64,000 nt of DNA from Candidatus Aminicenantes bacterium. GTDB lineage: Bacteria; Acidobacteriota; Aminicenantia; Aminicenantales; UBA8522. The DNA lies in NCBI GenBank assembly GCA_963764885.1, contig CAVXUH010000009.1, positions 331,850 through 395,849 of the forward strand, in the 5' to 3' direction. The stretch's first letter is position 1; every line of letters begins with the position of its first letter. This document shows positions 29,276 to 56,147 of the stretch, one piece after another. The position numbers and the translations under genes are program-made. The notes under the pieces were generated by a model. That model worked only from the letters and a program-made list of their open reading frames with translations. It made no database searches and had not been told where the DNA came from.

Positions 29276-29314
29276 AAAATTGAATCACGCGGCGAAAATT
29301 TTTTTCCCGCCATC

Positions 29315-30969: not shown

Positions 30970-30971
30970 CC

Positions 30972-32582: not shown

Positions 32583-32597
32583 AGGGAAGAGAGGGAT

Positions 32598-37952: not shown

Positions 37953-38678
37953 ATGTGGAACAAGCTCGAGCTCCTGCACTACGAACGCCAACTGGAGCTG
38001 ATCGGCCGGCGCGGACAGCGACGCCTGAAGGGGTCGAGCGTTTTTATCGCCGGCGCGGGCGGATTGGGCACGGCGGCCGCGTCCTACCTGGCTGCCGCCG
38101 GCATCGGCCGCATTCTGATCGTCGACCGGGACAAGATCCAGGTCAACAATCTCAACCGACAGGTGATGTATGTCGAGAAGGACGCCGGGAAGCACAAGGC
38201 CGCCGCCCTGGCGGCCCGCTTGAGCGGGCTGAACCCCCATATCGAGATCCGCGGCGAGCCGGTCGACATCGGCGCCGTCGACATCCATGACCTCGTCGCC
38301 AGCTTCGATGTCCTGGTGGACGCCCTGGACAACTTTCCCTCCCGCTACGTCCTCAACGGCGCCGCCCTTGCCCAGGGCATCCCCCTCGTCCATGCCAGCA
38401 TCCGCGGCTTCTACGGGCAGGTGACGACGCTCGTGCCGGGCCTGACGCCCTGCCTCAAGTGCCTCTTCCCCGAGATCCCGAAAGACGACAGCCCGTCCGT
38501 CCTCGGCCCGGTCTGCGGCGTCATCGGCTGCCTTCAGGCCATGGAGGTCATTAAGTATCTCCTGGGCAACGGCTCCCTCCTGATGAACAAGCTCCTCGTC
38601 TTCGACGGCCTCAAGGGCTCGCTCGACGAGGTCGATATCGGCCGGCGGGCCGACTGCCCGGAGTGCGGCGGCCGATGA
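37953..38678 (+). CDS. moeB: ThiF/MoeB family E1-like adenylyltransferase with C-terminal CxxC...CPEC zinc motif
   Basis: 241 aa; NRQ motif, glycine-rich nucleotide loop GAGGLG. Confidence 0.75.
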   Translation: MWNKLELLHYERQLELIGRRGQRRLKGSSVFIAGAGGLGTAAASYLAAAGIGRILIVDRDKIQVNNLNRQVMYVEKDAGKHKAAALAARLSGLNPHIEIRGEPVDIGAVDIHDLVASFDVLVDALDNFPSRYVLNGAALAQGIPLVHASIRGFYGQVTTLVPGLTPCLKCLFPEIPKDDSPSVLGPVCGVIGCLQAMEVIKYLLGNGSLLMNKLLVFDGLKGSLDEVDIGRRADCPECGGR

Positions 38679-38953
38679 AGGTCCGGGTCAAGTTCCTGGC
38701 CAACTTTCGGGACCTCTTTGGGGCCCGCGACAGGGACATCGTCTTGCCCCGGAACGCGCGGCTGCGCGACCTCCTGAACGCCCTCTGCGATTCGCCGGAA
38801 CGCCGGGCCCAGGTCCTGACCGCCGCGGGCGAGATTCATCCCCAGGTCGTCATCATGAAGGACGGCACCCCTGCGCAATCGCTGGGGGGGCTGGAGATGC
38901 CGCTCGAGGATGGAGCGGTGGTGGCCGTCTTCCCCTTCCTCGGCGGCGGCTAA
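38675..38953 (+). CDS. moaD: MoaD/ThiS family sulfur-carrier protein ending in GG
   Basis: Starts MKVRVKFLANF with ATGA overlap on the moeB stop; C-terminus ...VFPFLGGG. Confidence 0.65.
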   Translation: MKVRVKFLANFRDLFGARDRDIVLPRNARLRDLLNALCDSPERRAQVLTAAGEIHPQVVIMKDGTPAQSLGGLEMPLEDGAVVAVFPFLGGG

Positions 38954-38995
38954 TCTGGTATCATCTCTCCTCACGAAAAGAAGAGAAGCTGTCCG

Positions 38996-42351: not shown

Positions 42352-43440
42352 TCAGGCTTCGGGAGTCGGGACGGCGGCGGGCACCGGCAGGGCGACAAAA
42401 AATTCCACCCAGCGTCCGGGCTCGGATTCGGCCCAGATGCGCCCCTGGTGCTTGTCGACGATCGATTTGCAGATGTAGAGACCGAGCCCGGACCCCTTGA
42501 CCCCGCCGGTGCCTTTCTGCTTCAGCCTCTCGAACCGCTTGAAGAGCCTGTTGGCGATGTCTTCTCGGGAGATGCCCACGCCTTCGTTGCGGACGGAGAA
42601 GATGATTTCGCCCCCCTTGGCGGCCAGCCGGACCCGGACCGGCGTGCCCTCGGTGCCGTACTTGATCGCGTTGTTGACGAGGTTGCCGACGATGATCTTC
42701 AGCAGGGCGGGGTCGCCCTCGATGATCGGGTCGCCCTCGAAGTCCGTGTCGATCGGCATCCGGCGCACGTTGTCCTTCACCTCCGGTATGTTCAGGACCT
42801 CGGCGACGACGGCAGAAGCGAGCGGGACTCTCTCCTTGAATATGGACAGGCCGTCGAGCTCCATCTTGGACAGGTCGATGTAGGAGCGGATGGTGTCCTC
42901 GAGGTATTCGCAGTTGCGGATGATCGTCTCCACGACCTTTTCCTGCTCGGGGTCGAGCTTGCCGAAGTAGCCGCGCCGGAGCGTCGCGGCCGTCGTCTGA
43001 ACGGTGGCCAGCGGGCTCTTGAGCTCGTGGGAGACGATGGCCATCAGGTCGAGCATCTTGGCCCCGGCGGCGTCGCGGCGGGCCTGGAAGGCATTGGCCA
43101 CGACGCTTCTCAGCTCCTCGGGGGTGAACGGCTTGGGGACATAGTCGAAGGCGCCGTTTTTCAGGGCCTCCCGGGCCGTTTCCACGCTCGAGTAGCCGGT
43201 GAAGATGATGATGGTCGTCCTGGGCCGGTCCCGCCGCAGGGCCTTGAGGATCTCCAGCCCGCCGAGCCCGGGCATCTTCAGGTCCGTGACGACGATGTCG
43301 TAGTCCTTGGTCATGGCCGTGGCCAGCCCCTCCTCGCCCGAAGAGGCGGTGTCGATCTCGTAGTCTGAGCCGGCGAAGATCCGCCGCGAGCTCTTGAGGA
43401 CGATCTCCTCGTCGTCGATGATAAGCAGCTTATTGGCCAT
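42352..43440 (-). CDS. hybrid response regulator-histidine kinase (REC + HisKA + HATPase, no sensor domain)
   Basis: 362 aa; REC D-box IVVTDLKMPGLGG; H-box AIVSHELKSPL; G2 GGVKGSGLGL. Confidence 0.75.
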   Translation of the reverse strand: MANKLLIIDDEEIVLKSSRRIFAGSDYEIDTASSGEEGLATAMTKDYDIVVTDLKMPGLGGLEILKALRRDRPRTTIIIFTGYSSVETAREALKNGAFDYVPKPFTPEELRSVVANAFQARRDAAGAKMLDLMAIVSHELKSPLATVQTTAATLRRGYFGKLDPEQEKVVETIIRNCEYLEDTIRSYIDLSKMELDGLSIFKERVPLASAVVAEVLNIPEVKDNVRRMPIDTDFEGDPIIEGDPALLKIIVGNLVNNAIKYGTEGTPVRVRLAAKGGEIIFSVRNEGVGISREDIANRLFKRFERLKQKGTGGVKGSGLGLYICKSIVDKHQGRIWAESEPGRWVEFFVALPVPAAVPTPEA

Positions 43441-43461: not shown

Positions 43462-45384
43462 TCATTGCAGGGGCAGCTTGATGGTGAATTTCGTGCCCTG
43501 GCCGACCTCGCTCTCCACGCTGATCAGGCCGCCGTGCCGCTGGATGACGCCGTAGGTCATGGCCAGCCCGAGCCCCGTCCCCTTGCCCTTGTCTTTGGTC
43601 GTGAAGAAAGGCTCGAAGATCTTGCGCATGTCCGCTTCGCTGATGCCGCTCCCCGTGTCGGCGACGGAGATGACGACCATGCCGAACTGGGGCTCGGCCG
43701 AGGTCGTGATGGTCAGCCGGCCGCCGTTCGGCATGGCGTCGGCGGCGTTGACGGCGAGGTTGTTGATGACCGATCGGATCTCTCCCGGGTCGACGCTGAC
43801 GCGGGGAAGGGGCCGGTCGAGGGCCTTGACGATCTCGATATTCTGGAAGCTGACGTGCTTCTCCAGGATCCTCAGGCTGTCCTCGATGATCAGGTTGAGG
43901 TCGCTCAGCACCCGCTCGGGCTTGGAGTCGCGGGCGAAGTCGAGCAGGCCCCGGACGATCCCCCGGCAGCGCATCGTCTCGTCCAGGATGACCTTGAGGT
44001 CCTCCTCGTACTTCGTGCCCCTCATGTCCTCGAGCAGCAGGCTGCTGTAAGTCAGCACGCCGGTCAGCGGGTTGTTGATCTCGTGGGCGATGCCCGAGGC
44101 CAGCCGGCCGATCGAGGCCAGCTTCTCGGACTTGAGGATGGTCCGGGCCGCCTGGTCCTTGAGCTCCCGGTCGCGCTCCTCGATGGCCTCGACCATGCCG
44201 TTGAAGGCCTGCCCCAGGTTCCGGGCGTCGTCGTCGTCGTGCGGGGCGATCTCGATCCGGTGGTAAACCCCTTGCGCCATCTCCTTCGAGGCGCCGATGA
44301 TTCTCTTGACGGGCTTGGTGTAGACGTTGATCAGGTAGCCGGCCAGGATCAGGGCGATAATCGTCGTGACGAGGATGACGAGGAGAAAGGACAGCGCCGT
44401 GCTCCTCACCAGGAGATCGTACTTCTGCTTGAGGATGCCGACGTAGAGAATGCCCAGGGTCTTGTGGTCCAGGTCGAAGATGGGGCTGTAGCCCGAGATG
44501 TACCAGCTGTCGACGACGAAGGCATTGTCCACCCAGACCTGGCCCTGTTCGAAGACGCGATGGTAGACTTCCTCGGACACCTGCGTGCCGATGGCCCGCC
44601 GGCCGGCGGCGTCGACGACGTTGGTGGCCACCCGGATGTCCCCCAGGAAGATGGTCGTCGTGCCGACGTCTTTTCCCCGGAGCTTTTCTTCCTTGAAGAC
44701 CAGTCTCTTGAACCGGTCGATGAACTCGGTGTTGTTGTTGAGGAGGACGGCGGCGTAGAGGATCCCCGTCATCCTGCCGGCGTCCTTGATCGGCGCCGCG
44801 ATCTTGATGACCATCGCCTTGTCCTCGAGGGGTGAGGACCTGGCCCGGGCGCGGGGCGTCGGGACGACCGGGATGAGGGTCCGCTCGGCGAGCTCCGGTC
44901 CTTCGTTCCGGATGCTCGAGTAGTCGAGGACTCCCGTCCCGGCGACCGGGGCCTCCGTCTTCAGGGCCTCCTGGATGGTCCGGTAGTGGGCCATGCTGTC
45001 GCCGAAGGCGTCCGGGTTGTTGGCCCGCACCAGGACGGTCCCCTGCGGGTCGACCACATTGACGATATCGAACCCGAAGTCGCGGCGGATGCGTCCCAGC
45101 GCCTCGTGGAGCGTTGCCCGGTCGGCGGCCGCCGTGGCCCGGACGATCTCGGACGTCTTGGCCAGGTACTGGATCGTCATCGACCGCCGGGCGATGTCCT
45201 CCCGGTAGAGCTCGTCGATGGCCGCCAGGCTCGTCCGGACGCTGTCGAAAGCCTCGCGGATGACGTTCTTGTTGAGGATGTTGAGCCCGATGATGATCGT
45301 CAGCGTGCCCGTCAGGAAGACGATGGACAGCAGGCTGACGACGAGCTTGAAGCGAATATTCGACCGCAGGATGGACTTGATCAA
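43462..45384 (-). CDS. sensor histidine kinase with periplasmic double-Cache-like domain, HAMP, HisKA, HATPase
   Basis: 640 aa; two TM segments flanking an about 280-aa periplasmic domain; H-box LASGIAHEINNPL; DTGSGI, GKGTGLGLA. Confidence 0.75.
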   Translation of the reverse strand: MIKSILRSNIRFKLVVSLLSIVFLTGTLTIIIGLNILNKNVIREAFDSVRTSLAAIDELYREDIARRSMTIQYLAKTSEIVRATAAADRATLHEALGRIRRDFGFDIVNVVDPQGTVLVRANNPDAFGDSMAHYRTIQEALKTEAPVAGTGVLDYSSIRNEGPELAERTLIPVVPTPRARARSSPLEDKAMVIKIAAPIKDAGRMTGILYAAVLLNNNTEFIDRFKRLVFKEEKLRGKDVGTTTIFLGDIRVATNVVDAAGRRAIGTQVSEEVYHRVFEQGQVWVDNAFVVDSWYISGYSPIFDLDHKTLGILYVGILKQKYDLLVRSTALSFLLVILVTTIIALILAGYLINVYTKPVKRIIGASKEMAQGVYHRIEIAPHDDDDARNLGQAFNGMVEAIEERDRELKDQAARTILKSEKLASIGRLASGIAHEINNPLTGVLTYSSLLLEDMRGTKYEEDLKVILDETMRCRGIVRGLLDFARDSKPERVLSDLNLIIEDSLRILEKHVSFQNIEIVKALDRPLPRVSVDPGEIRSVINNLAVNAADAMPNGGRLTITTSAEPQFGMVVISVADTGSGISEADMRKIFEPFFTTKDKGKGTGLGLAMTYGVIQRHGGLISVESEVGQGTKFTIKLPLQ

Positions 45385-45785
45385 TGGAGCGCTCGCGCGA
45401 TCTTGGCCAGGAGCTCGTCGAGGTCGACGGGCTTGGTCAGGAAGTCGTTCGCCCCGGGGAGGAAGCTCTCCGCCGGGTCCAGGGAGAAGCGGGAGTTGGT
45501 CACCTGGTTGATGGCCGTCAGGATGACGATCGGGATGTCCCGGAACTCACGATACCGGGAGGTCGGGCGCCGGCTGCGGATCAGGTCGGCGGCCTCGAAC
45601 CCGGCCGTGTCCGTCTCCATCATGACGTCGAGGATCACGAGGTCGGGCCGCTCCGTGAGGAGCGCCTTCAAACCGTCCGCCCCGCTGTGGGCGGCCGCGA
45701 CGGCATAGCCGTTGCCCTTCAGGACCTGGGCCAGGCTGGCGACGAGGTCCCGGTCGTCGTCGACGATCAGGATCTTCCTGCTCAT
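45381..45785 (-). CDS. single-domain response regulator (REC only)
   Basis: 134 aa; ILIVDDD...LVILDVMME; overlaps hycG-like start and kinase stop. Confidence 0.8.
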   Translation of the reverse strand: MSRKILIVDDDRDLVASLAQVLKGNGYAVAAAHSGADGLKALLTERPDLVILDVMMETDTAGFEAADLIRSRRPTSRYREFRDIPIVILTAINQVTNSRFSLDPAESFLPGANDFLTKPVDLDELLAKIARALH

Positions 45786-46312
45786 GTGTTCAGGACCTTG
45801 TAGATGACGTTCCGCTCTTCCCAGGCCTTGTTGCGCTCGTAGATGTCGATCGGGAACTCGACCTGCTTGAGCTCGACCGGCGCGGCCTGCTTGTCGACCA
45901 GGCCGAGGGCCAGGGCGACGCCGTAGATGATGGCCTCCGGCCGGGGCGGGCAGCCCGGGATATAATAGTTGACCGGGACGGCGGTGGCGCCGCCGCCGGT
46001 CACGTTGTAGGTGTCGAACCAGCAGCCGCCGCCCGTGGCGCAGGAGCCGATGCCGAAGACGAGCTTCGGCCCGGGCATGGCCGCGTAGGCCTTCTTGACC
46101 AACGGCAGGGTCGGGCGGGTCACCGCTCCCGAAAGGAGCATGACGTCGGCGTGGCGGGGCGAGCCGACGAGCTTGATCCCGAACCTCTCGACGTCATAGT
46201 ACGGGGTCAGGATGTTCAGGATCTCGATGTCGCAGCCGTTACAGGCGCCGCTGTTGCAGTGGTAGACCCAGAGGGAGCGGGGGAAGCACTTCTTGGCGAT
46301 CTTGGCGAGCAT
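45782..46312 (-). CDS. hycG: group-4 [NiFe]-hydrogenase small subunit (NuoB/HycG-like)
   Basis: 176 aa; cysteines CNSGACNGC ... GSCATGGGC ... PGCPPRPE. Confidence 0.8.
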   Translation of the reverse strand: MLAKIAKKCFPRSLWVYHCNSGACNGCDIEILNILTPYYDVERFGIKLVGSPRHADVMLLSGAVTRPTLPLVKKAYAAMPGPKLVFGIGSCATGGGCWFDTYNVTGGGATAVPVNYYIPGCPPRPEAIIYGVALALGLVDKQAAPVELKQVEFPIDIYERNKAWEERNVIYKVLNT

Positions 46313-46313
46313 C

Positions 46314-46859
46314 TCAGTCTCCTGTCTCCCGGGGGCGCTCGTAGCGCTCGGTCCGGCCGAGCTCCCGGGGCTCGAAGCGGTCGGTGGCTGTCCGGAGGAC
46401 CGTCCGGGCCTCCAGGCTGTCGTAACGGTAGCCCGTCAGGCCGAGCTTGTCGATGGCGCTCGCGGTCTCCATGTCGTAGCACCGCCCGCAGCGCTGGCAG
46501 GTCAGCATGAATATCTCGAGGTTCTCGGTGATGTCGTTCCGGTCGTCGGTCGCCTGCTCGAACCGGCCGGTCATGGTGATGGCCTTCTCCGGGCAGAGCT
46601 CGGCGCAGCGGCCGCAGTACGTGCACCGCGAACCGTCATAGAGAAGCACTCGAACCTCCTGGCAGAGGTCGCGGACCATGATCGTCCGGGCCGGGCAGTG
46701 ATTGGCGCAGCCGGCGCAGCCGATGCACTTCGTGTGGTCCCAGTGCGGCGCTCCCCGGAAATCCTTGGGCGCCGGCCTCGGCTCGAACGGGTATTTCAGG
46801 GTGACGACCCCGGGTTTCAGGACCATCAGGACCTGTTTGATTTTGCTTGTCAGCCACAT
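46314..46859 (-). CDS. hycF: 2x[4Fe-4S] ferredoxin subunit (NuoI/HycF-like)
   Basis: 181 aa; CIGCAGCANHCP and CTYCGRCAELCP. Confidence 0.75.
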   Translation of the reverse strand: MWLTSKIKQVLMVLKPGVVTLKYPFEPRPAPKDFRGAPHWDHTKCIGCAGCANHCPARTIMVRDLCQEVRVLLYDGSRCTYCGRCAELCPEKAITMTGRFEQATDDRNDITENLEIFMLTCQRCGRCYDMETASAIDKLGLTGYRYDSLEARTVLRTATDRFEPRELGRTERYERPRETGD

Positions 46860-46882
46860 GTCGGTGTCTCCCGCCCTGTTCC

Positions 46883-47785
46883 CTAGAGCCCCTTGATCGA
46901 GAGCGCGACCGCGCCCAGCGCGGCCAGTATCAGCCCGGCGTAGATCTTGACCGCCTGGTCGATTCGAAGCCGGGGGTTGGTCGATCCGACCAGGGCGATC
47001 AGGACGAACACGAGCAGCATGCCGGCGAGCTGGACCAGGATGTCAGCGGCGTAGACGCCCGTCCGGAGGAAGGGCGCGAACACCGCCACCAGCAGCCAGG
47101 CGTAAAACATCTGTTTCATCATCATGGCGAACCGGAACAGGCCGTAATCGGGACCGCTGTACTCGATAAAGGGGCCCTCCAGGATTTCGATCTCCGCCTC
47201 GGAAATGTCGAACGGCTGCTTGGCCACGAAGGCCTGCAGGGCGAAGATGTAGATGACGAGCATGATCCCGAGCGAGAGGCTGTAGCCCGCCGCGGCCGCG
47301 CCGTAGACCGCCGAGCTCAGACCGAGGCTCTTCATGCGGACGGCGCCCAGGATGAGGGTCATGGCCAGGACCGGCTCGACCATGATCATGGTCACGGTCT
47401 CGCGGCTGGCGCCGATGACGGCGAAGGTGTTCCGGGAGGAGAGCGCGCCCAGAAGGACGGATACTCCGCCCAAAGTGAGAAGGTAGATGAGGGTGATGGC
47501 GTCGGCGCGGCCGCCCAGCACGCCCGGCCGGCCGCCGAAGGGGATGAGGACCGCCACCGTCACGATCGAGGCGAACGCGCCCAGCGGGGCGAGCTTAAAG
47601 GCCCAGTTGCCCGCCGAATTGACCCTTTCCTTGCCGGCGAGCTTGAGGAGGTCGTAGTAGGGCTGAAGGACCGGCGGGCCCTGGCGGGTCTGAACCCGGG
47701 CCGTGATCTTTCTCATGACGCCCTCGAACAGGGGCGCGAGGAGCAGGAACAGGGAGACGTTGATCAGCGAATAGACGATGCTCAT
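46883..47785 (-). CDS. hycD: NuoH/HycD-like integral membrane subunit
   Basis: Starts MSIVYSLINVSLFLLLAPLFEGVMRKITARVQTRQGPP (NuoH signature) at 47785, overlapping the hycE stop; the ORF-track 46883..48643 entry is an artefactual extension. Confidence 0.7.
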   Translation of the reverse strand: MSIVYSLINVSLFLLLAPLFEGVMRKITARVQTRQGPPVLQPYYDLLKLAGKERVNSAGNWAFKLAPLGAFASIVTVAVLIPFGGRPGVLGGRADAITLIYLLTLGGVSVLLGALSSRNTFAVIGASRETVTMIMVEPVLAMTLILGAVRMKSLGLSSAVYGAAAAGYSLSLGIMLVIYIFALQAFVAKQPFDISEAEIEILEGPFIEYSGPDYGLFRFAMMMKQMFYAWLLVAVFAPFLRTGVYAADILVQLAGMLLVFVLIALVGSTNPRLRIDQAVKIYAGLILAALGAVALSIKGL

Positions 47786-49497
47786 GGCCGGCTCCTCCCG
47801 CCTTCCTTCTTCAGGGCCAGCCGTTCGAGCTCGGCCCGCCCCAGGACACGGCCCCGGCCCGACTTTGTGTCGATAACTGCGACCCTGTCCGTGCAGGAGA
47901 AGCAGGGATCGATCGAGCCCAGGATGATGGGAAAATCGGCGAACTGATTCCCCATGAGCATCGACGGCACGCCCTGAAGGTTCGGGTAGGTCGGAGCCCG
48001 GACCCGCCAGCGCTCCGGCCGGTTCTCCTCCCCGGTGATAACGTAATGAACGGATTCGCCTCGGGGCGCCTCGACCATCGAAACGGCGTGACGGAGTGGC
48101 GGCAGGGCCTCGGGGACCTGGACGAGGAGCGGCCCGCCGGCGGGCATCCCGGCCAGGGCCTGCCGGATGATCTTGATCGATTCGAAGATCTCCAGGGCAC
48201 GAACGACGAGCGTCCCCCAGACGTCGCAGCTCTCGGCGACCGGGACGTCGAACTTCATCTCGTCGTAAGCCGCGTACGGGTGGTCTTTCCGGACATCGAG
48301 CCCCAGGCCCCGGGCCCGGGCGACCGGGCCGACCAGGCTCCAGCGGGCGGCGTCCTCCTTCGACAGGAAACCGACGCCCTTCGTCCGCCGATGGATGGCG
48401 GTGTCGCCGATGATCGAGTTCTTGAGGACGACGACCTCTTTCTCGAGCGCGTCCAGGGTCGATTCGATATCGGCCCGGACCTCGGGCGTGATGTCCCGGC
48501 GGACGCCGCCGATGACGACCATGCCGTAAGTCTTGCGGTTCCCGGTGATCCGCTCCGAGAGCCACATGATCTTCTCCCGGACCCGCCAGGCCTGCATGAA
48601 GACCGTGTCGAACCCGATCAGGTGGCCGGCGACGCCGAGCCACAGGAGGTGCGAGTGGAGGCGCTCGATCTCGAGCATGATGGTCCGGATGTATTCGGCC
48701 CGCCGCGAGATTCGGATCCCGGCGGCGGCCTCGACGGCCTGAGAGTAGCAGACGGCGTGGACCGAGCCGCAGATGCCGCAGATCCGCTCGGCCACGAAGG
48801 GAACCTCGTTGTAGCTCACCTGGGTCTGGCAGAGCTTCTCGATGCCCCGGTGGGTCATGAACCCGCGGTAATCGCAGCCCTTGATGGTTTCGCCGTCCAC
48901 ATAGACGGCAAAATGGGCGGGTTCGTGGAGGCTGGCGTGGAACGGCCCGATCGGGACGATCGTCGTTCCCGGCGGCGCTTCGTCGAGCTGATAGGCGACA
49001 TCCTCGGCGGCCGGCGGCACGAGGTTGTAGGGGACCTCTTTCCGGAGCGGGTGGACGCCCGCGGGCCAGTCATCGGCCAGGATGAGCCGCTTGGGCTTGG
49101 GGTGCCCTGTGAACTTCATCCCCAGAAGGTCCATGTATTCCCGCTCGGACCAGCCGGCGCCCGGCAGGTCGGGAGTGATCGATTCGAACGTCGGGTCGGC
49201 GGCCGGCGCGGACGTCCTGAGGATGACAACGGTGTGGCCGGCGTCGAAGGCAAAGGTGTGGACGAGGCCGAGTGTGCCGTTGCGGGTGATCTCATCGTAG
49301 CCCACGCCCATCATGTACCTGCCTCCGAGCCCCGCCAGCGTCTGCGCCGCCGGCCGGACCGCGGCGCGTTCGACATCGATGAAAAGTCGCGACGGCTCGG
49401 GGCGGGCGATGTTCTTGAGCGATGCGCCCAATCGCTTTTTGATCTCTTCGATTATGGATTCTGAAAGACCCATGGGTGCCATCCTCTTTTCTGTCAC
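47782..49497 (-). CDS. hycE: [NiFe]-hydrogenase large subunit with fused N-terminal NuoC-like domain (HycE-like, group 4)
   Basis: 571 aa; N-terminal Ni-Fe site RICGICGSVH; C-terminal DPCFSCTDR followed by an about 30-aa extension, as expected for protease-processed large subunits. Confidence 0.85.
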   Translation of the reverse strand: MTEKRMAPMGLSESIIEEIKKRLGASLKNIARPEPSRLFIDVERAAVRPAAQTLAGLGGRYMMGVGYDEITRNGTLGLVHTFAFDAGHTVVILRTSAPAADPTFESITPDLPGAGWSEREYMDLLGMKFTGHPKPKRLILADDWPAGVHPLRKEVPYNLVPPAAEDVAYQLDEAPPGTTIVPIGPFHASLHEPAHFAVYVDGETIKGCDYRGFMTHRGIEKLCQTQVSYNEVPFVAERICGICGSVHAVCYSQAVEAAAGIRISRRAEYIRTIMLEIERLHSHLLWLGVAGHLIGFDTVFMQAWRVREKIMWLSERITGNRKTYGMVVIGGVRRDITPEVRADIESTLDALEKEVVVLKNSIIGDTAIHRRTKGVGFLSKEDAARWSLVGPVARARGLGLDVRKDHPYAAYDEMKFDVPVAESCDVWGTLVVRALEIFESIKIIRQALAGMPAGGPLLVQVPEALPPLRHAVSMVEAPRGESVHYVITGEENRPERWRVRAPTYPNLQGVPSMLMGNQFADFPIILGSIDPCFSCTDRVAVIDTKSGRGRVLGRAELERLALKKEGGRSRP

Positions 49498-49501
49498 GGC
49501 C

Positions 49502-51358
49502 TCACCTCCCGCCGCGGCCGCCCGCCCAACGGAAAAGGGACCTGAGAGCGGCGAACATCCCCCGGTCCGCGTACCGGTTGGCGTCGCCGAGCTCCTGGTA
49601 GCCGCCGAGCCAGGTCGGGGCCGTGACCTCCTGGGAGCCGCCAGACCTCCTGAGGAATGCGCCCGCGGCCAGGGCCAGCCCGAAGACGAGGAGGACGATG
49701 AGCGGCGCCGCCGCCGAGTTCAGGGGCAGTCCGTAAAGGCCGCCCAGCTTGATGCCGGAGGCTGAAACGGATAGTGAGCTCCGGGCTGCGGCCAGGCCAT
49801 CGGCCAGCAGGAAGCGCTCGGACCGCTGCAGGGCCGCCATGATGAGCGAAAACGAGGCGGCCGGGAAGAGCCCCTGGGCGAGGCAGACGATGGTCAGGAC
49901 GATCTTCGGAGCGAGCATCGAGCCCGGGACCTCCCGGACGGTCCGGCCGGCGTTCCACTCCGTGCCGGACGAGGTGAAGGCCATGCCGAAGAATTTGACA
50001 TAGCAAGCCAGGGTGACTGCGCTCGTGAACAGGGCGACGATGCCGAAAATGACCAGCAGAGCCGCCCCATTCCCGGCGAGAAGGGCGCTCGTGATGATGC
50101 TCCACTTGCTCGAGAAGCCGCTGAAGGGCGGCATCCCGGATATGGCGAGGGAGGCGATCCCGGCGATGATCGCGCTCACGGGCATCCAGCGGATAAGCCC
50201 GCCGAGCTTGTTGAGGTCTTTGGTGCCCGTTGCATAGAGGAGGCTGCCGCTTGTGAGGAACAGCAACCCCTTGAAAACGGCGTGATTGAGCACGTGGAAG
50301 ACGGCGCCCACGGCGGCGACCAGGGCCAGCGCGCGGAGCGCCGGCTCGCCGGAATCCCCTAGGACGAGGACGGCACCGACGGCCAGGACGATATAGCCGA
50401 CCTGGCCGATCGAGCTGTAGGCGAGCAGCCTCTTGGCGTCGCTCTGCTTCATCGATTGGATGGTCCCGATGAGGAGCGTCGCCGCGCCGACGGCGGCGAT
50501 CGGGAGGCCCCAGGCCCGCGCGTCGAAGGCGGCCCCGGCGGCCGGACCCAGGAAGAGGAAGGTCCGGATGAGGCCGTAGACCCCGGTCTTGATCATGACC
50601 CCGCTCAGCAGGGCGCTGACGGGCGACGGAGCTACCGAGTGGGCGTCGGGGAGCCAGAGCTGGCCGAGCGGGTAGACACCCGCTTTCAAGCCGAACCCGA
50701 CCAGAAGAAAAGCGAAGAACCCGAACAGCCAGGGGCCGGGCGTCGCGCCCAGCTTCGCCCCGAGCTTCGCCAGCGGCTCGCCGAAGGTGTAGCCTTTGGC
50801 GAAAAAGGCGCCGCCGACGATCAGGAGCCAGGCGACCTCCATGAGGAGAAGGTACTTTGCCGCGCTCCGGATATTCTCTTTCTTCCTGCGCTCGAAGCGG
50901 ATCAGAAAGTAGGAGGCCAGGGTCATGATCTGCCAGGCCAGGGTGAACCCGGGTCCCAGGTCGTCGACGGCGACGAGCCCGGCCATGCCCAGGATAAAGA
51001 GCGGATAGCAGCAATAATAGCCGGCCAGCCCGTAGTCCGCGTAATGGTCCATGTAGCGGATGCTATAGAGGGCGCTCATCGCGGCCATGAACGCGATAAC
51101 CAGGAGGAAGACCCCGGACAGGCCGTCGACGAGGAAGGGGATGTGAAACGGCCCGACCGCGACCGTCCGAGAGGCCGGCCCGCTGCCGAAAACGGCCCCG
51201 AAACCGACCGTGAACAGGACGGCGGACGAGACCGTGACGAACAGAAGATTGAGCAGCCCGGCGCTCTTTCTTTGCCGGGCGGCGAGGGGTGTGATGGCTG
51301 CCGAGACGGCCAGGACGCCCAGGGCGATAAACAGCCGGCTGATGATATCGAAGTTCAT
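49502..51358 (-). CDS. hycC: NuoL/HycC/HyfB-like antiporter-type membrane subunit
   Basis: About 618 aa, polytopic; start MNFDIISRL at 51358 (ATGA overlap with upstream relic ORF); track ORF begins at a GTG at 51385. Confidence 0.7.
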   Translation of the reverse strand: MNFDIISRLFIALGVLAVSAAITPLAARQRKSAGLLNLLFVTVSSAVLFTVGFGAVFGSGPASRTVAVGPFHIPFLVDGLSGVFLLVIAFMAAMSALYSIRYMDHYADYGLAGYYCCYPLFILGMAGLVAVDDLGPGFTLAWQIMTLASYFLIRFERRKKENIRSAAKYLLLMEVAWLLIVGGAFFAKGYTFGEPLAKLGAKLGATPGPWLFGFFAFLLVGFGLKAGVYPLGQLWLPDAHSVAPSPVSALLSGVMIKTGVYGLIRTFLFLGPAAGAAFDARAWGLPIAAVGAATLLIGTIQSMKQSDAKRLLAYSSIGQVGYIVLAVGAVLVLGDSGEPALRALALVAAVGAVFHVLNHAVFKGLLFLTSGSLLYATGTKDLNKLGGLIRWMPVSAIIAGIASLAISGMPPFSGFSSKWSIITSALLAGNGAALLVIFGIVALFTSAVTLACYVKFFGMAFTSSGTEWNAGRTVREVPGSMLAPKIVLTIVCLAQGLFPAASFSLIMAALQRSERFLLADGLAAARSSLSVSASGIKLGGLYGLPLNSAAAPLIVLLVFGLALAAGAFLRRSGGSQEVTAPTWLGGYQELGDANRYADRGMFAALRSLFRWAGGRGGR

Positions 51359-51510
51359 TGACGCTGTCCGTGACGCGGCGGGCACGCCCTGAGGATCAGG
51401 CCGCCGACCTCTCCGGCCGCCCGTTCAAACGCCGGCGTGAGCCCGGGGCCAAAGCCGATGTCTCCCGGGGCGATGCCCAGGAGGATAGTTTGTTGTCCGC
51501 GGGCTCCCTG
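51355..51510 (-). pseudogene. relic of a hydrogenase maturation endopeptidase (HycI/HybD family): only the C-terminal about 45 residues, no start codon
   Basis: Frame between hydG-like stop and hycC start reads QQTILLGIAPGDIGFGPGLTPAFERAAGEVGGLILRA..., which matches the HybD C-terminus (LTLVGVIPESLEPHIGLTPTVEAMIEPALEQVLAAL) by eye; ends in ATGA overlap with hycC. Confidence 0.5.
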
Positions 51511-51523
51511 TCATGGCGCTCCC

Positions 51524-52366
51524 CTAGATCTGCTCCCCGAGCGTCTTGATCTGTTTGTAGGTGTAAACCGGGCCGTCCGTGCAGACGAGCGTCCGGCCGA
51601 TGGCGCAGTGCTGGCACTTGCCGATGCCGCACTTCATGTGCCGCTCGAGCGTCGAGATGATGGCGTCGTCCTTCAGACCGCTGGCCAGGAGCTCCTTGAT
51701 GACCGAGTTGAACATGACGGGCGGCCCGCAGACGAAGGCCGTCGTGTCCTTGACCGGGACCGACGCCTTGGCGACGAGGGTATGCACAAACCCGACCTCG
51801 CCCGTCCAGCCGGGCTCCGCCCGGTCGATGGCGACGTGGACCTCGAACCCGGGGATCTTGCGCCACTCGTCGATCATGTATTTATACATGTGGTCTTTCG
51901 GCGAGCGGGCTCCGTAGAGAAGGATGATGCGTCCGAAATCCCGGCGGTGCTGGAGGACGTGGACGATCGACGAGCGCAGCGGGATGATGCCGATCCCGCC
52001 CGCGGCGTAGATGATGTTCCGGCCCTGGAGTTCGGCGAACGGGAAGCCGTTGCCGAAGGGGCCGCGGAGGCCGATCTTATCCCCGGCCCCGAGCTCGTGG
52101 AGCGCGCGGGTGGCCTTGCCCACCTGCCGGACGGACAGGTGGGGCCGGTCGCCCTCCGGGCTGAACGGCAGGGAGACGGCGAACTCGCCGGCCCCGAAGA
52201 CCGTGCACATGACGAACTGGCCGGACTTGACCCGGAAGCTTCGGCCGACGTCCCCGTTCTCGAACGAGAAATAGAACGTCCGGACGTCTTCGATCTCGTC
52301 CCTGATCTCGTCGATGACCGCGACCTCGGGGACGGTAACGATCGCGCCGGCGTTCGGGGCGCTCAC
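51524..52366 (-). CDS. FAD/NAD(P)-binding oxidoreductase with C-terminal [2Fe-2S] site (sulfhydrogenase gamma HydG / AsrB-like)
   Basis: 280 aa; flavin-binding RxYS-like region, C-terminal CGIGKCQHC...C. Confidence 0.7.
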   Translation of the reverse strand: MSAPNAGAIVTVPEVAVIDEIRDEIEDVRTFYFSFENGDVGRSFRVKSGQFVMCTVFGAGEFAVSLPFSPEGDRPHLSVRQVGKATRALHELGAGDKIGLRGPFGNGFPFAELQGRNIIYAAGGIGIIPLRSSIVHVLQHRRDFGRIILLYGARSPKDHMYKYMIDEWRKIPGFEVHVAIDRAEPGWTGEVGFVHTLVAKASVPVKDTTAFVCGPPVMFNSVIKELLASGLKDDAIISTLERHMKCGIGKCQHCAIGRTLVCTDGPVYTYKQIKTLGEQI

Positions 52367-53430
52367 TTGCCACCTGCCCTGGTGATCTCGCGGCGGATAT
52401 AGGTGACGACGTTCGACATCCCGATATCTCCCGGGCAGACCCGGACGCAGCGGCCGCAGCCGACGCAGCCCGGCCTCAGGTATTTCCTCGACTGGGAATA
52501 GGACAGTTTGCAGAAAAAGCGCTTGTTCCGCCGGTCCTCGACGGGATGGCGGGGGTTGTGGTCGCCGGCCATCCGCGTATAGCCTTCATAGGAGCAGGAG
52601 TCCCAGGACCTCAGGCGGTCGGTCCCGCCCGCGCGGCTGGGGACGTCCTCGATGTTGAAGCAGGAGCAGGTCGGACAGACGAACGAGCAGGCCCCGCACT
52701 CGAAGCACTGGTCGCCGATGTACTCCCAGACGTCGTTGCTGATGAACCCCGTCGTGATCCTGTTCATGACCCGCGAGATCCAGGCCTTGTTCTGGGTGGC
52801 CTCGCGGTCGAACCGGGCGATCGAGGCGTCGACGATTCTGGTTTTGAGAGCGGCCGCTTCCGGACCGGCTTCTTTCAGGCCGAGCCGGCGGGCGAGGGCC
52901 ACGCCCTTGTCGCTGCCGGCCTCGAACAGGTAGTCGTCTCCGGTGTCGGTGAGGTTGACGTCGAAGCCCTCCTGGGCCGCCGGCCCGCTGTCGGTGCAGA
53001 CGCAGAAGCATTGGGGAAACGGCCGGATGCAGGTGTTGGCGACGATGAACAGCTTCTTGCGGTGGTCGCGATAAACCTCGTCCACGTATTCCTGGCCGAG
53101 ATAGAACCGGTCGAGGCACAAGATCCCGGTGAGGTCGCAGGACCTCAACCCGACAAGCGCCTTGGGACGGACCAGGTCGTCCCGGACGATTTCGGCTTTC
53201 CGGGCCGCCCGGTCATAGGTGTATGACATGATCCGCTCGGACTGGGGAAAGACCACGCGCTTGGGAGGGTTGTAGGGGATCGCGGCGTCCAGCCGGATCA
53301 AGGCCGGGTCCGCGATCTTGTCGAACCGGGCCTCGCCGGAGGGGGAATCGATAACGGGGCCGTACAACTCATGGTCCCCGGCCAGGTCAGCGGCCAGCTT
53401 TACGGATCGGTCTTTTGGCAGAAGATACAT
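52363..53430 (-). CDS. iron-sulfur subunit, sulfhydrogenase beta HydB / AsrA-like
   Basis: 355 aa; CFECGACSFVCPTCSC and CVGCGRCVRVCP cysteine clusters; overlaps neighbouring genes by 4 nt. Confidence 0.7.
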   Translation of the reverse strand: MYLLPKDRSVKLAADLAGDHELYGPVIDSPSGEARFDKIADPALIRLDAAIPYNPPKRVVFPQSERIMSYTYDRAARKAEIVRDDLVRPKALVGLRSCDLTGILCLDRFYLGQEYVDEVYRDHRKKLFIVANTCIRPFPQCFCVCTDSGPAAQEGFDVNLTDTGDDYLFEAGSDKGVALARRLGLKEAGPEAAALKTRIVDASIARFDREATQNKAWISRVMNRITTGFISNDVWEYIGDQCFECGACSFVCPTCSCFNIEDVPSRAGGTDRLRSWDSCSYEGYTRMAGDHNPRHPVEDRRNKRFFCKLSYSQSRKYLRPGCVGCGRCVRVCPGDIGMSNVVTYIRREITRAGGK

Positions 53431-53432
53431 GG

Positions 53433-55391
53433 TCAGGCCTTCTCCAACCGCACGGGGATGACGGAATCCTGGTCCTCGTCGAGCGCGTAGCCCTGAGGGT
53501 TCAGGAAACCGGGGACCATGTCCCCGATGAAGTAGGGGACGTAGGCCGTACCCGGTTTGACGTCTCCGGAAACCCGGACGGCGACCCGCATCGACCCGCC
53601 GGCGGACACGACATTGACCGACGAGCGGTCCCGGACGCCGACCCGGGCCGCGTCGGCGGCCGTAAGCTCGATGAACCCTTTGGGGTAGAGAAGGAGCAGG
53701 GCGTTGTATTCCCGTTTCGGAATATGGGTCTTCTTCATGACGTTGTTCCGGTGCCAGAAGGTGTTGGCCTTGCCGGCCATGAGGAGGAACGGGAACTCTT
53801 CAGAGAAGGCGGGCGCCCGGTAATCCGCCGGCACGGGGACGAACTCGAGCCGGCGGGGCAGGTCATCGACGGATAGCCGCGCCGTGCCGTCCTGGTGGCG
53901 AAAGTCACAGGGCCACTGCAGCCCGAAACCGGCCTCGAGCTTGGCGTAGGTGACCGCCGCGTAGGCGGGAACGGCCGATGCGATCTCCCTCATGACGTCT
54001 TCGGCGGAGCCGAAAGGCCAGGCGGCGCCCCGCCGGGCGGCGACGTCCGCGTAGACGCGCCAGGCGGGGAGGACCCCCGCGGGCGCCCCGACTTTCCGGC
54101 GGTTAAGCTGGATCCTCCGCTCGGCGTTCGTGTAGGTCCCGTCGGCTTCCGCAGAGGAAGCCGCGGGCAGAACGATATGGGCGAACTCCATGAACGGATT
54201 GGTGTAGGCACTGATGAAGACGACGCACTCGAGTCCCTTGATCTTGGCGGCGTGACGGACGATCTCCTCGTCCCGGTCGGCCACGACCACGGCCTTGAGC
54301 GGCGACGGGTCGGCGGCGAGCAACTCCCGCGGTGTGTGCCCGGCGGCGGGGCCCTCGGCCCGCCGGTGACCGGGAAGAAACCGGGGGGCAGCGCCCACGT
54401 CATAGCTGCCGACGATGTTGCAGACCCCCGTTACGGGGTTGACGCCGCAGCCTTCTCGCCCGACCTTGCCGGCGGTCAGGAACAGGTTGTAGAGCATGGC
54501 GACCGAGCCGCGGTCGAGCCCCGAGATCCCCGACGAGAAAAAGGCCATGGCGCTCGCCGCGCCGGACAGGCGCCGGGCCAACTCTTCGACCGCATCGCCG
54601 GACAGGCCTGCGGCGGCCGCGAGCGCACCGAGGTCGAGCGGAGCCAGGGAGCGAGAGAAATCACCGAAACCCCCGGCATGTTCCCGGAGGAAATCCGCGT
54701 CCTCCCAGCCGCGCTCGACCATGACCTTGGCCACCGCCGCGAGCGCGTGCTTCAAGGTCCCCGGGTTCAGCCAGAGGTGCCTGCGGCTGAGCTTCGAGAT
54801 CTGGGTCAGCCGGCTGCTCAGGCTGATGAGGTCGGCGCCGTTCCGGGCCGCCAGATGGATCTCGCTGCCGATGATCGGGTTCAGCCGGGCGATATCCGAG
54901 CCGACGACCAGAATGAGCTCGGCCTTGCGGATCTCGGTCAGCGTGCCCAGCATGGCTGGCAGGCCGGCGCCCTGGAGAAGGACGTCGGCGGCGTCGCCGT
55001 GGCCCCGGTCCGAGGCGAGACCGATGTTGGGCGAGCGGAAGACCGTCCGGGCCAGCTTGGCCAGGACGTAGTTGTCTTCGTTCGAAGCGCGCGGCGAAGC
55101 CAGGAAGGCGATCTCGTCGCCGGAATACCGCGAGAGGCGGTCCGCCGCCTGCGCTACGGCTTCGTCGTAGGGGACCGGTTCCAGCCGCCCGTTGCGGCGG
55201 ATGAGCGGCGCGGCGATTCTCTCTTCGGTCGCCAGCAGCTCGTGAATGTGCCAGCCGCGAACGCACAGCCGGCCCCGGCTGATCGGATGGCCGGGAGAAG
55301 CGAAGACGCCCGTCACCGCGCCCTCATCGACTTCGAGCAGATGACCGCAGCCCGTTCCGCAGAAGTTGCAGACGCCTGAATGAGTGCTCAT
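53433..55391 (-). CDS. cytoplasmic molybdopterin (Mo/W-bisPGD) oxidoreductase catalytic subunit, formate dehydrogenase FdhA/FdhF-like
   Basis: 652 aa; N-terminal [4Fe-4S] motif CNFCGTGCG...C; no Tat signal; no in-frame TGA. Confidence 0.7.
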   Translation of the reverse strand: MSTHSGVCNFCGTGCGHLLEVDEGAVTGVFASPGHPISRGRLCVRGWHIHELLATEERIAAPLIRRNGRLEPVPYDEAVAQAADRLSRYSGDEIAFLASPRASNEDNYVLAKLARTVFRSPNIGLASDRGHGDAADVLLQGAGLPAMLGTLTEIRKAELILVVGSDIARLNPIIGSEIHLAARNGADLISLSSRLTQISKLSRRHLWLNPGTLKHALAAVAKVMVERGWEDADFLREHAGGFGDFSRSLAPLDLGALAAAAGLSGDAVEELARRLSGAASAMAFFSSGISGLDRGSVAMLYNLFLTAGKVGREGCGVNPVTGVCNIVGSYDVGAAPRFLPGHRRAEGPAAGHTPRELLAADPSPLKAVVVADRDEEIVRHAAKIKGLECVVFISAYTNPFMEFAHIVLPAASSAEADGTYTNAERRIQLNRRKVGAPAGVLPAWRVYADVAARRGAAWPFGSAEDVMREIASAVPAYAAVTYAKLEAGFGLQWPCDFRHQDGTARLSVDDLPRRLEFVPVPADYRAPAFSEEFPFLLMAGKANTFWHRNNVMKKTHIPKREYNALLLLYPKGFIELTAADAARVGVRDRSSVNVVSAGGSMRVAVRVSGDVKPGTAYVPYFIGDMVPGFLNPQGYALDEDQDSVIPVRLEKA

Positions 55392-55589
55392 GCCCCGAAA
55401 TCCTCAGTATGAATGCCCGTTTGTCCCCGGTGACCGGCCCGGGCCGGAAGGGAGCGGGCCGGCTGAGGCACGACACCCTTTCGGGATCCGGATGGCCATT
55501 TGCGGAGACGGTGTGGACGTCCGCCGCGTGCGGGGAAGTATTAAACCTGAATATACCAAATCACCCTGGAATTGTAAAGGCTGGGAGGT
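55392..55589 (-). promoter_or_regulatory. candidate promoter (TTTACA-17-TATATT) and about 130-nt GC-rich structured 5-prime leader upstream of the fdhA-like gene
   Basis: Minus-strand reading ...ctttacaattccagggtgatttggtatattcagg...; RBS GAGGA before ATG; several GC hairpins in leader. Confidence 0.3.
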
Positions 55590-56147
55590 TCATCGCGCCC
55601 CTCCAGGTCCGAGATTGAGTTTGAGGACATAGAGGATATTGAAAAAGTAGGAGATCCCCCCGATAAAGCGCTCCCGGATCATACCCTTGGGGATCTCTTC
55701 GATGGCGGCTCTCAAGGCCGCCAGGGAGACGGTCAGGGCATCATGGTCGGCCAGGATGACTTCCCGGCCGGCCGAGGCGATCAGGCTTTCGGTCTCCCGG
55801 GCCAGCCTGTCCAGGTCGCTAAAGATCGCCCGGTAGGCCCTCCGCCGGGGAGGGTCGACGGCCAGCACCGCCTTTTCGGCGATCGCCATCCGGACGATCG
55901 CGTAGCCGAGGCGGACTTCTTCGGGGTTCCTGTCCTGTTCACGGTCGGGGAAGCGCTCGAGATAGGCCATCCCGAGCTCGATCATATCGGCGCTGGCGAA
56001 GGCGAAATCACCCTCGAGGTCGAGGACGGCCCGGCGGAACGATTCGAGGTCTTTTTGCCCGCGGAAGAGGCCGGCGAGCGAGACCCCGGCGCCGGGGTGA
56101 CGGCCTCTCGAGGCTTGGTGTGGCACGAAGGCCAATTTATACCACAT
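55590..56147 (-). CDS. hypothetical protein (possibly shorter, starting near MIELGMAYLERF)
   Basis: 185-aa ORF; no family recognised. Confidence 0.3.
   Translation of the reverse strand: MWYKLAFVPHQASRGRHPGAGVSLAGLFRGQKDLESFRRAVLDLEGDFAFASADMIELGMAYLERFPDREQDRNPEEVRLGYAIVRMAIAEKAVLAVDPPRRRAYRAIFSDLDRLARETESLIASAGREVILADHDALTVSLAALRAAIEEIPKGMIRERFIGGISYFFNILYVLKLNLGPGGAR

Follow-up and report, generated by a model that had tools for sequence, protein, structure and literature searches.

A widespread operon predicted to join a Hyc-type [NiFe] hydrogenase to a sulfhydrogenase-type NAD(P)H module and a formate dehydrogenase relic

Layout of the operon

The 64,000-nucleotide stretch of Candidatus Aminicenantes contig CAVXUH010000009.1 analyzed here (hereafter the window) carries an operon predicted to encode a membrane-bound [NiFe] hydrogenase together with a subunit resembling formate dehydrogenase (FDH) and a pair of sulfhydrogenase-like subunits. 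The operon occupies the minus strand from 55391 to 42352 and comprises eleven intact co-directional open reading frames (ORFs) and one gene fragment. The G+C content of the window is ~65%, and high third-codon-position G+C marks the real genes. Within the operon, consecutive genes are joined by ATGA overlaps or separated by gaps of 1–23 nt, the sole exception being a 138-nt spacer between hydG and hycC.

The first gene (53433–55391) encodes an FdhH-like subunit of 652 residues with the fold that binds a molybdenum-bis(pyranopterin guanine dinucleotide) cofactor (Pfam PF04879 Molybdop_Fe4S4, PF00384 Molybdopterin, and PF01568 Molydop_binding), hereafter the FdhA-like subunit. It is followed by a HydB-like poly-[4Fe-4S] subunit resembling AsrA and the beta subunit of sulfhydrogenase I (SHI; 355 residues, 52363–53430, PF17179 Fer4_22), and by a HydG-like FAD-NAD(P)H-[2Fe-2S] subunit resembling AsrB and SHI gamma (280 residues, 51524–52366, PF00175 NAD_binding_1 and PF10418 DHODB_Fe-S_bind). 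The spacer after hydG holds a relic of the maturation protease gene hycI, consisting of its last ~50 codons without a start codon (51355–51510), recognized by its match to the intact HycI of a related locus, L005. The hydrogenase genes proper come next: an antiporter-like membrane subunit of the HycC/NuoL/MbhH type (49502–51358, PF00361 and PF00662), a HycE-type [NiFe] large subunit with fused NuoC and NuoD parts that was identified by Pfam (47782–49497, 563–571 residues), a HycD/NuoH-like membrane anchor (46883–47785, 300 residues, PF00146), a HycF/NuoI-like subunit with two [4Fe-4S] clusters (46314–46859, 181 residues, NF009053, formate hydrogenlyase iron-sulfur subunit, 110 bits), and a HycG/NuoB-like small subunit (45782–46312, 176 residues, PF01058). 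Only one antiporter-like gene is present in the cluster, and further ones would not fit into the contiguous gene set.

Three regulatory genes complete the unit. A receiver-only response regulator (45381–45785, PF00072) shares an ATGA overlap with hycG, and its gene in turn overlaps by 4 nt that of a sensor kinase with Cache (dCache_3/sCache_3), HAMP, HisKA, and HATPase domains assigned by Pfam (43462–45384). The last gene encodes a hybrid receiver-histidine kinase (42352–43440), whose domains were taken from its ortholog in locus L001 (PF00072, PF00512, and PF02518) and from motifs visible in the translation. A preliminary description of this DNA had listed the gene content at 45381–55391, the subunit assignments, the protease relic, and an order of Hyc genes unlike that of E. 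coli, and the ORFs, Pfam, and NCBIfam bear out all of these. The ten-gene stretch it delimited also stands, but the unit does not end at the response regulator and runs ~3 kb further through the two kinases to 42352.

Distribution and gene order

To place the operon in a wider context, we searched 5.8 billion proteins with the window HycE and recovered at least 120 homologs at 67% identity or more. Those listed, usually annotated as “Ni,Fe-hydrogenase III large subunit” or “NADH-quinone oxidoreductase subunit C”, come mostly from metagenome-assembled genomes (MAGs) of Acidobacteriota/Aminicenantes and Spirochaetes; the nearest relatives, at 83–86% identity, are from Candidatus Aminicenantes MAGs. 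Scanning one genome per GTDB species then yielded 80 loci (individual related loci are denoted by L numbers), in which gene order was established by tblastn with all window proteins. Family alignments were built from 72–80 orthologous loci.

The order FdhA-like subunit, HydB, HydG, HycI, HycC, HycE, HycD, HycF, HycG, response regulator is kept in nearly all of the 80 species-level loci, and the genes for the Cache and hybrid kinases usually come next. The same order is seen in two divergent loci, L082, whose HycE is 68% identical to that of the window, and L085, whose HycE is 55% identical with intact NiFe motifs. The hosts include Candidatus Aminicenantes/Acidobacteriota, many Spirochaetota, Vicinamibacterales, Oligoflexia, Beta- and Gammaproteobacteria, and Desulfobacterota (Thermodesulfobacteriota). 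The complete operon is also present in three cultured bacteria: Rhodocyclus purpureus DSM 168, Chitiniphilus shinanonensis DSM 23277, and Lamprocystis purpurea DSM 4197. This compact form with a single antiporter-like gene was by far the most often recovered in the homolog searches.

Two loci from Thermodesulfobacteriota/delta proteobacterium MAGs (L074 and L080) carry the genes in a permuted arrangement, with hycC and hycD preceding the fdhA-like gene, hydB, hydG, and hycI, and then hycE, hycF, and hycG. Since all nine genes are retained in these loci, it is the gene set rather than the order that is conserved.

The hydrogenase core

The large subunit carries the Ni-Fe ligands expected of a hydrogenase, in an L1 motif reading RICGICGSVH and an L2 motif reading DPCFSCTDR, both conserved in ~80 orthologs. 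Whether these ligands were present had been raised in the preliminary description. The closest solved structure is E. coli HycE (7z0s_E, 426 bits, 41% identity), and the window protein bears a 33-residue C-terminal extension of the type removed by HycI; such an extension, 26–33 residues long, is found in all ~80 orthologs.

The rest of the group 4 gene set that we tested is likewise present, namely a NuoB-like small subunit with the proximal-cluster cysteines and NuoI-like, NuoH-like, and NuoL-like subunits. HycG is the most conserved subunit of all (median identity 84%), with its four cluster cysteines invariant or nearly so (C121 in 74 of 75 orthologs). The ferredoxin cysteine motifs of HycF are invariant across orthologs, as are, in 80 orthologs, the loop and channel glutamates of HycD (E129, E137, E196, E198, E200, and E208). 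The best solved match of HycC is Pyrococcus furiosus MbhH (6cfw_H, 189 bits), compared with 119 bits for E. coli HycC, and its lysines in transmembrane helices (TM) 7 and 12, Lys266 and Lys372, are invariant across orthologs.

Beyond its two ferredoxin motifs, HycF has a third cysteine motif, CxxCxxC, at residues 121–127 (LTCQRCGRCY), which is invariant in 79 orthologs. By analogy, this motif may be related to the extra metal site seen in E. coli HycF.

A sulfhydrogenase-type NAD(P)H module in place of HycB

In classical formate hydrogenlyase (FHL), the ferredoxin-like HycB links FdhH to the hydrogenase, and it had been proposed that a HydB/HydG-type NAD(P)H module takes its place here. Our results support this substitution. 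We found no HycB-like gene in the cluster, and E. coli HycB had no significant match to any cluster protein, HydB included. The closest solved relatives of the HydB-like and HydG-like proteins are the beta and gamma subunits of P. furiosus SHI, respectively (9nez_B, E 2e-37 over residues 4–338, and 9nez_C, E 2e-50). We checked six cysteine motifs in HydB, and every cysteine was invariant in 72 orthologs except C105, which is a cysteine in 60 of the 72. In HydG, the nucleotide-binding motif GGIGxxPLRS and the [2Fe-2S] motif CGxGKCQHC...C (C-x4-C-x2-C...C) were invariant in the same number of orthologs.

These proteins do not fall within any of the named families. The best NCBIfam models for the HydB-like protein (sulfhydrogenase HydB/ShyB and AsrA) scored 134–146 bits against cutoffs of 323–750, and those for the HydG-like protein (hydrogenase gamma, ShyC, HydG, and AsrB) scored 173–220 bits against cutoffs of 289–650. 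Because the scores lie under every equivalog cutoff, we regard the pair as a distinct subfamily.

The resemblance to AsrA and AsrB had raised the alternative of an AsrAB sulfite reductase, which we rejected. We found no asrC or sirohaem gene and no group 3b alpha or delta subunit either within the operon or elsewhere in the window, and the genes called in L001, L082, and L085 included none. The AsrA and AsrB models scored below their cutoffs and below the hydrogenase beta and gamma models.

Taken together, the hydrogenase core looks functional, as judged from its sequence, because the NiFe motifs, nearly all iron-sulfur cysteines, the NAD(P) motif, and the charged residues of the membrane arm are invariant in 72–80 orthologs.

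An FdhA-like subunit without the residues for formate oxidation

We aligned the FdhA-like subunit at residue level to the structurally characterized FDHs 9t1s, 7qv7, and 7bkb. The selenocysteine (Sec) or cysteine that ligates the molybdenum in FDHs corresponds to Gly130 (…SDRGHGD…), the catalytic Arg of PLRGQNNVQG to Thr321 (PVTGVCNIVG), and the relay Lys44 of CxKG to Arg45. These replacements are a property of the family, as seen in 67 orthologs: the relay position is Arg in every one of them, the Mo-ligand position is Gly in 65 and never Cys, and the position of the catalytic Arg is Thr or Ala in 63 and never Arg. Only the adjacent His is retained from the FDH trio of Sec/Cys ligand, His, and Arg. 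The three cultured hosts show the same non-canonical motifs. Even the retained His changes in some lineages, with Trp-Tyr at the former Sec-His position in L072 and a former active site reading GMGAYRATGI, with neither Cys nor His, in the divergent clade of L085, which has the same operon. The four [4Fe-4S] ligands (C8, C11, C15, and C43), on the other hand, are invariant in all 67 orthologs.

The divergence from FDHs extends well beyond the active site. In an alignment of 57 canonical FDHs, 105 columns are conserved to 85% or more; the FdhA-like subunit keeps 55 of these and has changed 50. Among the changed positions are the DPR, GSN..HP, and TGR motifs as well as His, Asn, Asp, and Lys residues that are invariant at the C-terminal end (including D635, K643, and N628), and several of the lost cofactor-type positions are variable within the family. 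The FDH alpha model TIGR01591 scores 359.6 bits against a cutoff of 666.25. In an exhaustive HMMER search against 1.84 billion representatives, the score falls from 675 to ~480 and then to 366 bits or less, which splits the FdhA-like family from the canonical FDHs; those beyond the drop carry CxKG, CARxCH, and NPLRGQNNVQG. The FdhA-like subunit is also the least conserved structural subunit of the operon, with a median identity to the window protein of 48% compared with 54–84% for the others. At the level of structure, its AlphaFold 2 model reached Foldseek TM-scores of 0.85–0.87 to FdhH and other FDHs and 0.64 to Mycobacterium NuoG.

The preliminary description had suggested that the complex could couple formate to H2. 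With neither the Sec/Cys ligand nor the catalytic Arg in any of the 67 orthologs, formate oxidation by this predicted protein at a Mo/W-Cys(Sec) site is excluded, and the bis-molybdopterin guanine dinucleotide cofactor has likely been lost. The subunit is under selection for another role, most simply, by analogy with complex I, as a NuoG-like structural part that carries an iron-sulfur cluster. We also considered and rejected read-through at a Sec codon, since no stop codon interrupts the ORF and 65 of the 67 orthologs have a Gly codon at the ligand position.

The most conserved family-specific motif, WHxNxxMKKTxIPxREY, lies in a loop at residues 542–563 that contains a 7-residue insertion relative to canonical FDHs and has a predicted local distance difference test score (pLDDT) below 50. 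As this loop is invariant yet cannot be placed in the model, it suggests a partner-binding or ligand-binding interface.

A relic of the maturation protease gene

The reading frame 51510–51355 encodes QGARGQQTILLGIAPGDIGFGPGLTPAFERAAGEVGGLILRACPPRHGQRQ, followed by a stop codon, and is 74% identical to residues 132–181 of the intact, 181-residue HycI of L005 (E 4e-22). It lies in frame inside the spacer between hydG and hycC, and its stop codon overlaps the ATG at 51358. This ATG, rather than the GTG at 51385, is therefore most likely the true start of hycC.

Most related loci, the closest relatives of the window included, have an intact HycI (~168–181 residues) at the same position. In contrast to these, hycI is wholly absent from two Acidobacteriota/Aminicenantes MAGs (L072 and L076), in which the HycE extension is kept. 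The window contains no second maturation protease and no hyp gene. If its large subunit is processed at all, the protease must be supplied in trans in the window genome, or else the enzyme would be inactive. Because L072 and L076 have kept both the operon and the HycE extension without hycI, the protease is presumably supplied in trans wherever the operon copy is missing.

Regulatory genes and genomic neighborhood

The regulatory genes are part of the conserved arrangement. A response regulator follows hycG in nearly all related loci, the Cache kinase is kept downstream in L001, L082, and many other loci, and the hybrid kinase is conserved in 39 loci at more than 90% coverage. In the explanation we propose below, the operon is under the control of a conserved, predicted Cache-sensor phosphorelay. 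A gene for a LuxR/GerE-type response regulator lies ~1 kb upstream of the fdhA-like gene in 30 Spirochaetota loci (L001 and 29 others). As the phosphorelay otherwise has only a receiver-only response regulator, this protein may be its DNA-binding output. In L085, a cNMP-binding protein and a second Fer4_22 (HydB-like) gene stand in place of the two-component genes (10857–12381 of that locus).

Directly upstream of the fdhA-like gene, on the same strand, is a conserved hypothetical ORF of at most 185 residues (55590–56147) without a Pfam match. In 16 related loci, most of them from Aminicenantes, a homolog with 32–68% identity is placed and oriented in the same way, and the ORF may be an unrecognized accessory or regulatory gene of the operon. 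A sigma-70-like match (TTTACA-17-TATATT with TG, minus strand, 55550–55578), located ~160 nt upstream of the first gene, came from a consensus scan that returned 4 matches per 14.4 kb against 1.7 expected, and constitutes weak evidence for a promoter of the operon. A search of the whole window with Rfam at gathering thresholds found no riboswitch, the molybdenum cofactor type included.

The genes flanking the operon vary more. Among the Spirochaete loci, an ADP-forming acetyl-CoA synthetase is encoded downstream in 13 and a 2-oxoacid:ferredoxin oxidoreductase upstream in two. In the window, a plus-strand group at 37953–42153 converges on the hydrogenase unit and encodes a ThiF/MoeB-like protein, a ThiS/MoaD-like protein, an aldehyde:ferredoxin oxidoreductase (AOR; AFOR_N and AFOR_C domains), and a duplicated class II aldolase-like gene. 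The preliminary description had pointed to a tungsten AOR with its MoaD/MoeB pair as a neighbor of interest. These genes are indeed there, but a functional link to the hydrogenase was rejected: in a tblastn analysis over 82 related loci, the window AOR adjoins none and the ThiF/MoeB-like gene adjoins one, and the adjacency, not being conserved, is treated as coincidental.

Further away, at 25026–37316, lie genes for a sigma-54-dependent response regulator and a PDZ-GAF-PAS histidine kinase, followed by T2SS-F, a T2SS-E ATPase, and a secretin. This is a type II secretion/type IV pilus-like cluster unrelated to the hydrogenase operon.

Proposed function and alternative explanations

We propose that the operon encodes an eight-subunit, membrane-bound, HycE-type group 4 [NiFe] hydrogenase that would act as an ion-coupled NAD(P)H:H+ (H2:NAD(P)+) oxidoreductase, with an FdhH relic serving as an iron-sulfur adaptor; we put the probability of this reading at about one half. 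The input module would comprise an NAD(P)H-binding flavo-iron-sulfur pair of the SHI beta/gamma type and the catalytically dead FdhH relic, instead of FdhH and HycB. Electrons would travel, in either direction, between NAD(P)H, the FAD and [2Fe-2S] cluster of HydG, the [4Fe-4S] clusters of HydB, HycF, HycG, and the [NiFe] site of HycE, and HycD and the single HycC would couple turnover to the movement of H+ or Na+. The FdhA-like subunit would serve as a NuoG-like scaffold carrying one [4Fe-4S] cluster, joined to HydB much as FdhF and HycB are joined in E. coli FHL. NAD(P)H has a midpoint potential of -320 mV and H2 one of -414 mV. Given this gap, the enzyme would either conserve energy by using H2 to reduce NAD(P)+ or, in fermenters, dispose of NAD(P)H by evolving H2, driven by an ion gradient or by very low H2. 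The subunit contacts, NAD(P)H as the substrate, the direction of the reaction, and the ion coupling are all features that we infer from the sequences.

In a bolder form, which we put forward only tentatively, the complex would be a natural “hydrogenase-type complex I”, with a sulfhydrogenase-type diaphorase and a Mo-free FdhH relic mounted on a minimal Hyc core. It would pump ions as an H2:NAD(P)+ oxidoreductase or, in reverse, serve as a valve from NAD(P)H to H2 that is driven by the gradient.

Several observations weigh against the proposed NAD(P)H-linked hydrogenase. Under standard conditions, H2 evolution from NAD(P)H runs uphill, which is unusual for group 4 enzymes. In the membrane arm, the canonical Glu of TM5 in HycC is replaced by Gln152, which is invariant in all 73 orthologs. 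The AlphaFold 2 model of the FdhA-like subunit (pLDDT 84, predicted TM-score 0.88) fully keeps the four-domain fold, and ~100 of the 652 columns are at least 95% conserved, including S-[DE]-x-G-H and the WHxNxxMKKTxIPxREY motif near the former active site. This family-specific conservation, together with that of all four iron-sulfur cysteines, is as compatible with a retained role in ligand binding or catalysis as it is with a scaffold. The truncation of hycI means that the copy in the window genome is possibly non-functional. Finally, the literature searched contained no biochemical study of any member. The preliminary description had allowed for a synteny that was both common and already characterized; the former is the case, the latter is not.

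The conservation of the FdhA-like subunit is one argument for a three-branch confurcating or bifurcating enzyme, in which HydB would be a junction to the [NiFe] site, the HydG flavin, and the FdhA-like subunit, and the latter would bind a third redox partner. That partner could be a small substrate at the remodeled site or a ferredoxin at the [4Fe-4S] cluster, such that NAD(P)H and a low-potential donor would together yield H2, or the reverse. Takano et al. (Front Microbiol 2026, PMC13582414) proposed such a scheme from AlphaFold 3 models of group 4b clusters with the same module. The retained four-domain fold, the [4Fe-4S] ligands, and the conserved family motifs near the old active site are all in its favor, as are the ferredoxin-generating neighbors in some Spirochaete loci (the 2-oxoacid:ferredoxin oxidoreductase and ADP-forming acetyl-CoA synthetase) and the proximity of the AOR in the window. 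Yet the former metal site differs among sub-clades (S-D/E-x-G-H, W-Y in L072, and GMGAYRATGI in L085), the cofactor-binding invariants are lost and variable, flavoproteins of the HydG type are not known to hold a bifurcating flavin, and the flanking genes are not conserved overall. We therefore regard a third branch as possible but somewhat unlikely. The same neighbors, together with the fermentative hosts, would fit a ferredoxin-dependent, H2-evolving energy-converting hydrogenase whose AsrA/AsrB-like pair is fed by reduced ferredoxin instead of NAD(P)H. Low-potential donors are typical for group 4 enzymes, and Glass et al. gave this interpretation for the homologous HunAB. We find it unlikely, however, given that the nucleotide-binding motif of HydG is invariant, that this subunit is nearest to the NADPH-oxidizing SHI gamma, and that no sequence feature marks a ferredoxin site.

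The truncated hycI, in turn, allows for a decaying operon in the window genome: the loss of the protease would block C-terminal processing of HycE, which still bears the 33-residue extension that needs cleavage, and the complex would no longer be made. Against such decay, none of the eight structural and three regulatory genes is disrupted, all are highly similar to their orthologs, and the two loci that cleanly lack hycI while keeping the operon and the extension suggest that a protease acts in trans; we judge decay to be quite improbable. Least credible is a genuine FHL with a non-canonical formate dehydrogenase, for which we see very little chance. It has in its favor the source annotations (“formate dehydrogenase major subunit” and “hydrogenase 3”), the FdhH-like fold and best PDB matches of the FdhA-like subunit, which are formate dehydrogenases, and the HycE-like large subunit. 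However, the Sec/Cys ligand and the catalytic Arg are missing from every ortholog, TIGR01591 scores far under its cutoff, there is no HycB, and neither focA nor pfl is present in the window. In addition, Robbins et al. (2016) reported Aminicenantes genes annotated as hydrogenase-3/FHL in a genome that nevertheless had no route to formate.

Implications

Annotation pipelines name these genes formate dehydrogenase and hydrogenase 3, which amounts to a systematic misannotation over at least 80 species-level genomes. As a consequence, metabolic models of anoxic sediments, digesters, and aquifers credit these organisms with a formate-to-H2 conversion that the sequences do not support. Should the enzyme prove to be a hydrogenase-type complex I, thousands of “formate hydrogenlyase” calls in MAGs of Aminicenantes, Spirochaetota, and other anaerobes would be wrong. 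It would then be an independent replay of the step by which complex I gained its NADH-oxidizing module and its NuoG relic. If NAD(P)H is linked directly to H2 through an ion-coupled membrane arm, this would represent a new solution for NADH disposal in fermenters, and the enzyme would be a present-day counterpart of a stage between membrane hydrogenases and complex I. The three cultured, genome-sequenced hosts make the question directly testable. The combination of a Cys-less Fdh with SHI beta and gamma homologs has already been noticed in print, and the enzyme is both abundant and uncharacterized.

Comparison with known systems

One of the closest known systems is E. coli FHL-1 (FdhF-HycBCDEFG, group 4a, PDB 7Z0S/7Z0T), with which the operon shares a fused HycE bearing both CxxC motifs and a HycI-cleaved extension, HycG, HycF, HycD, a single antiporter-like HycC, and an FdhH-fold subunit encoded alongside. 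It differs from FHL-1 in having an SHI beta/gamma-like NAD(P)H module and no HycB, and in an FdhH-like subunit without the Sec/Cys, Arg, and Lys. The gene order is C-E-D-F-G in the window and hycB-C-D-E-F-G in E. coli, and no hycA, hycH, or hyp genes adjoin the window operon. The window HycC, which is closer to MbhH, keeps the TM7 and TM12 lysines, whereas E. coli HycC has Leu208 and Glu391 instead; comparing the TM5 position with those in TM7 and TM12, the E. coli protein shows the opposite pattern to that of the window.

The input module has counterparts elsewhere. P. furiosus SHI (PDB 9NEZ) shares the beta and gamma cysteine patterns, the FAD/NAD(P) domain, and the [2Fe-2S] motif, but there the module is partnered with the alpha and delta subunits of a soluble group 3b enzyme, in contrast to the membrane-bound group 4 hydrogenase of the window. 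A further likeness, which we infer, is to NuoG/Nqo3 of complex I, where a molybdopterin-enzyme fold without catalysis also sits in the input arm beside an NAD(P)H-oxidizing flavoprotein. NuoG has extra N-terminal iron-sulfur domains, and its partners NuoE and NuoF (the latter with FMN) are unrelated to HydB and HydG.

The preliminary description had not recognized the architecture as described. Besides its presence in nearly all of the 80 species-level genomes, the combination of modules has been reported before in silico. In group 4b clusters, Takano et al. found no Cys/Sec in about half of the Fdh subunits, and such subunits co-occur with SHI gamma and SHI beta homologs. Their AlphaFold 3 models gave a three-branched iron-sulfur network, from which they proposed bifurcation or confurcation that involves H2, NADP(H), and a third, unknown substrate (PMC13582414). 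The models place the SHI gamma homolog at the end of the chain toward the hydrogenase, which independently favors the electron path proposed here. Those clusters and the window operon share the three-part input module and the conclusion that Mo would not be coordinated through Cys/Sec. The group 4b clusters encode 11–12 proteins, with a HyfE-like subunit, several antiporter-like subunits, and several ferredoxins, whereas the window has one antiporter-like and one ferredoxin-like subunit and no HyfE, and its FdhA-like subunit is only ~34% identical to theirs. Among our own loci, L089 represents a larger chassis, with HypB/HypA, the FdhA-like subunit, HydB, HydG, and HycI followed by two antiporter-like genes.

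Two other genome studies describe related assemblies. Matheus Carnevali et al. (Nat Commun 2019) reported an “enigmatic” group 4 hydrogenase in Saganbacteria with Mrp-like subunits, cooF, asrA, and asrB, in a region whose molybdopterin oxidoreductase was not identifiable as a formate dehydrogenase. Glass et al. (2021) described a 16-subunit, Mrp/Mbh-type “Hun” complex of group 4g, read as ferredoxin-dependent, in which HunA and HunB resemble AsrA and AsrB and which in some MAGs is accompanied by a Mo-domain protein. Like the window operon, these systems combine AsrA/AsrB-like subunits, and sometimes a Mo-domain protein that is not an FDH, with a group 4 hydrogenase. They differ in their 16-subunit Mrp/Mbh-type build, in a 4g large subunit with an odd L2 motif (CYCC), in a CooF-like gene, and in a gene order that runs AsrA, AsrB, and then the Mo-protein. 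Judged by its predicted subunits, the window operon is a compact, Hyc-like, single-antiporter version of a module and chassis known only from genome analysis.

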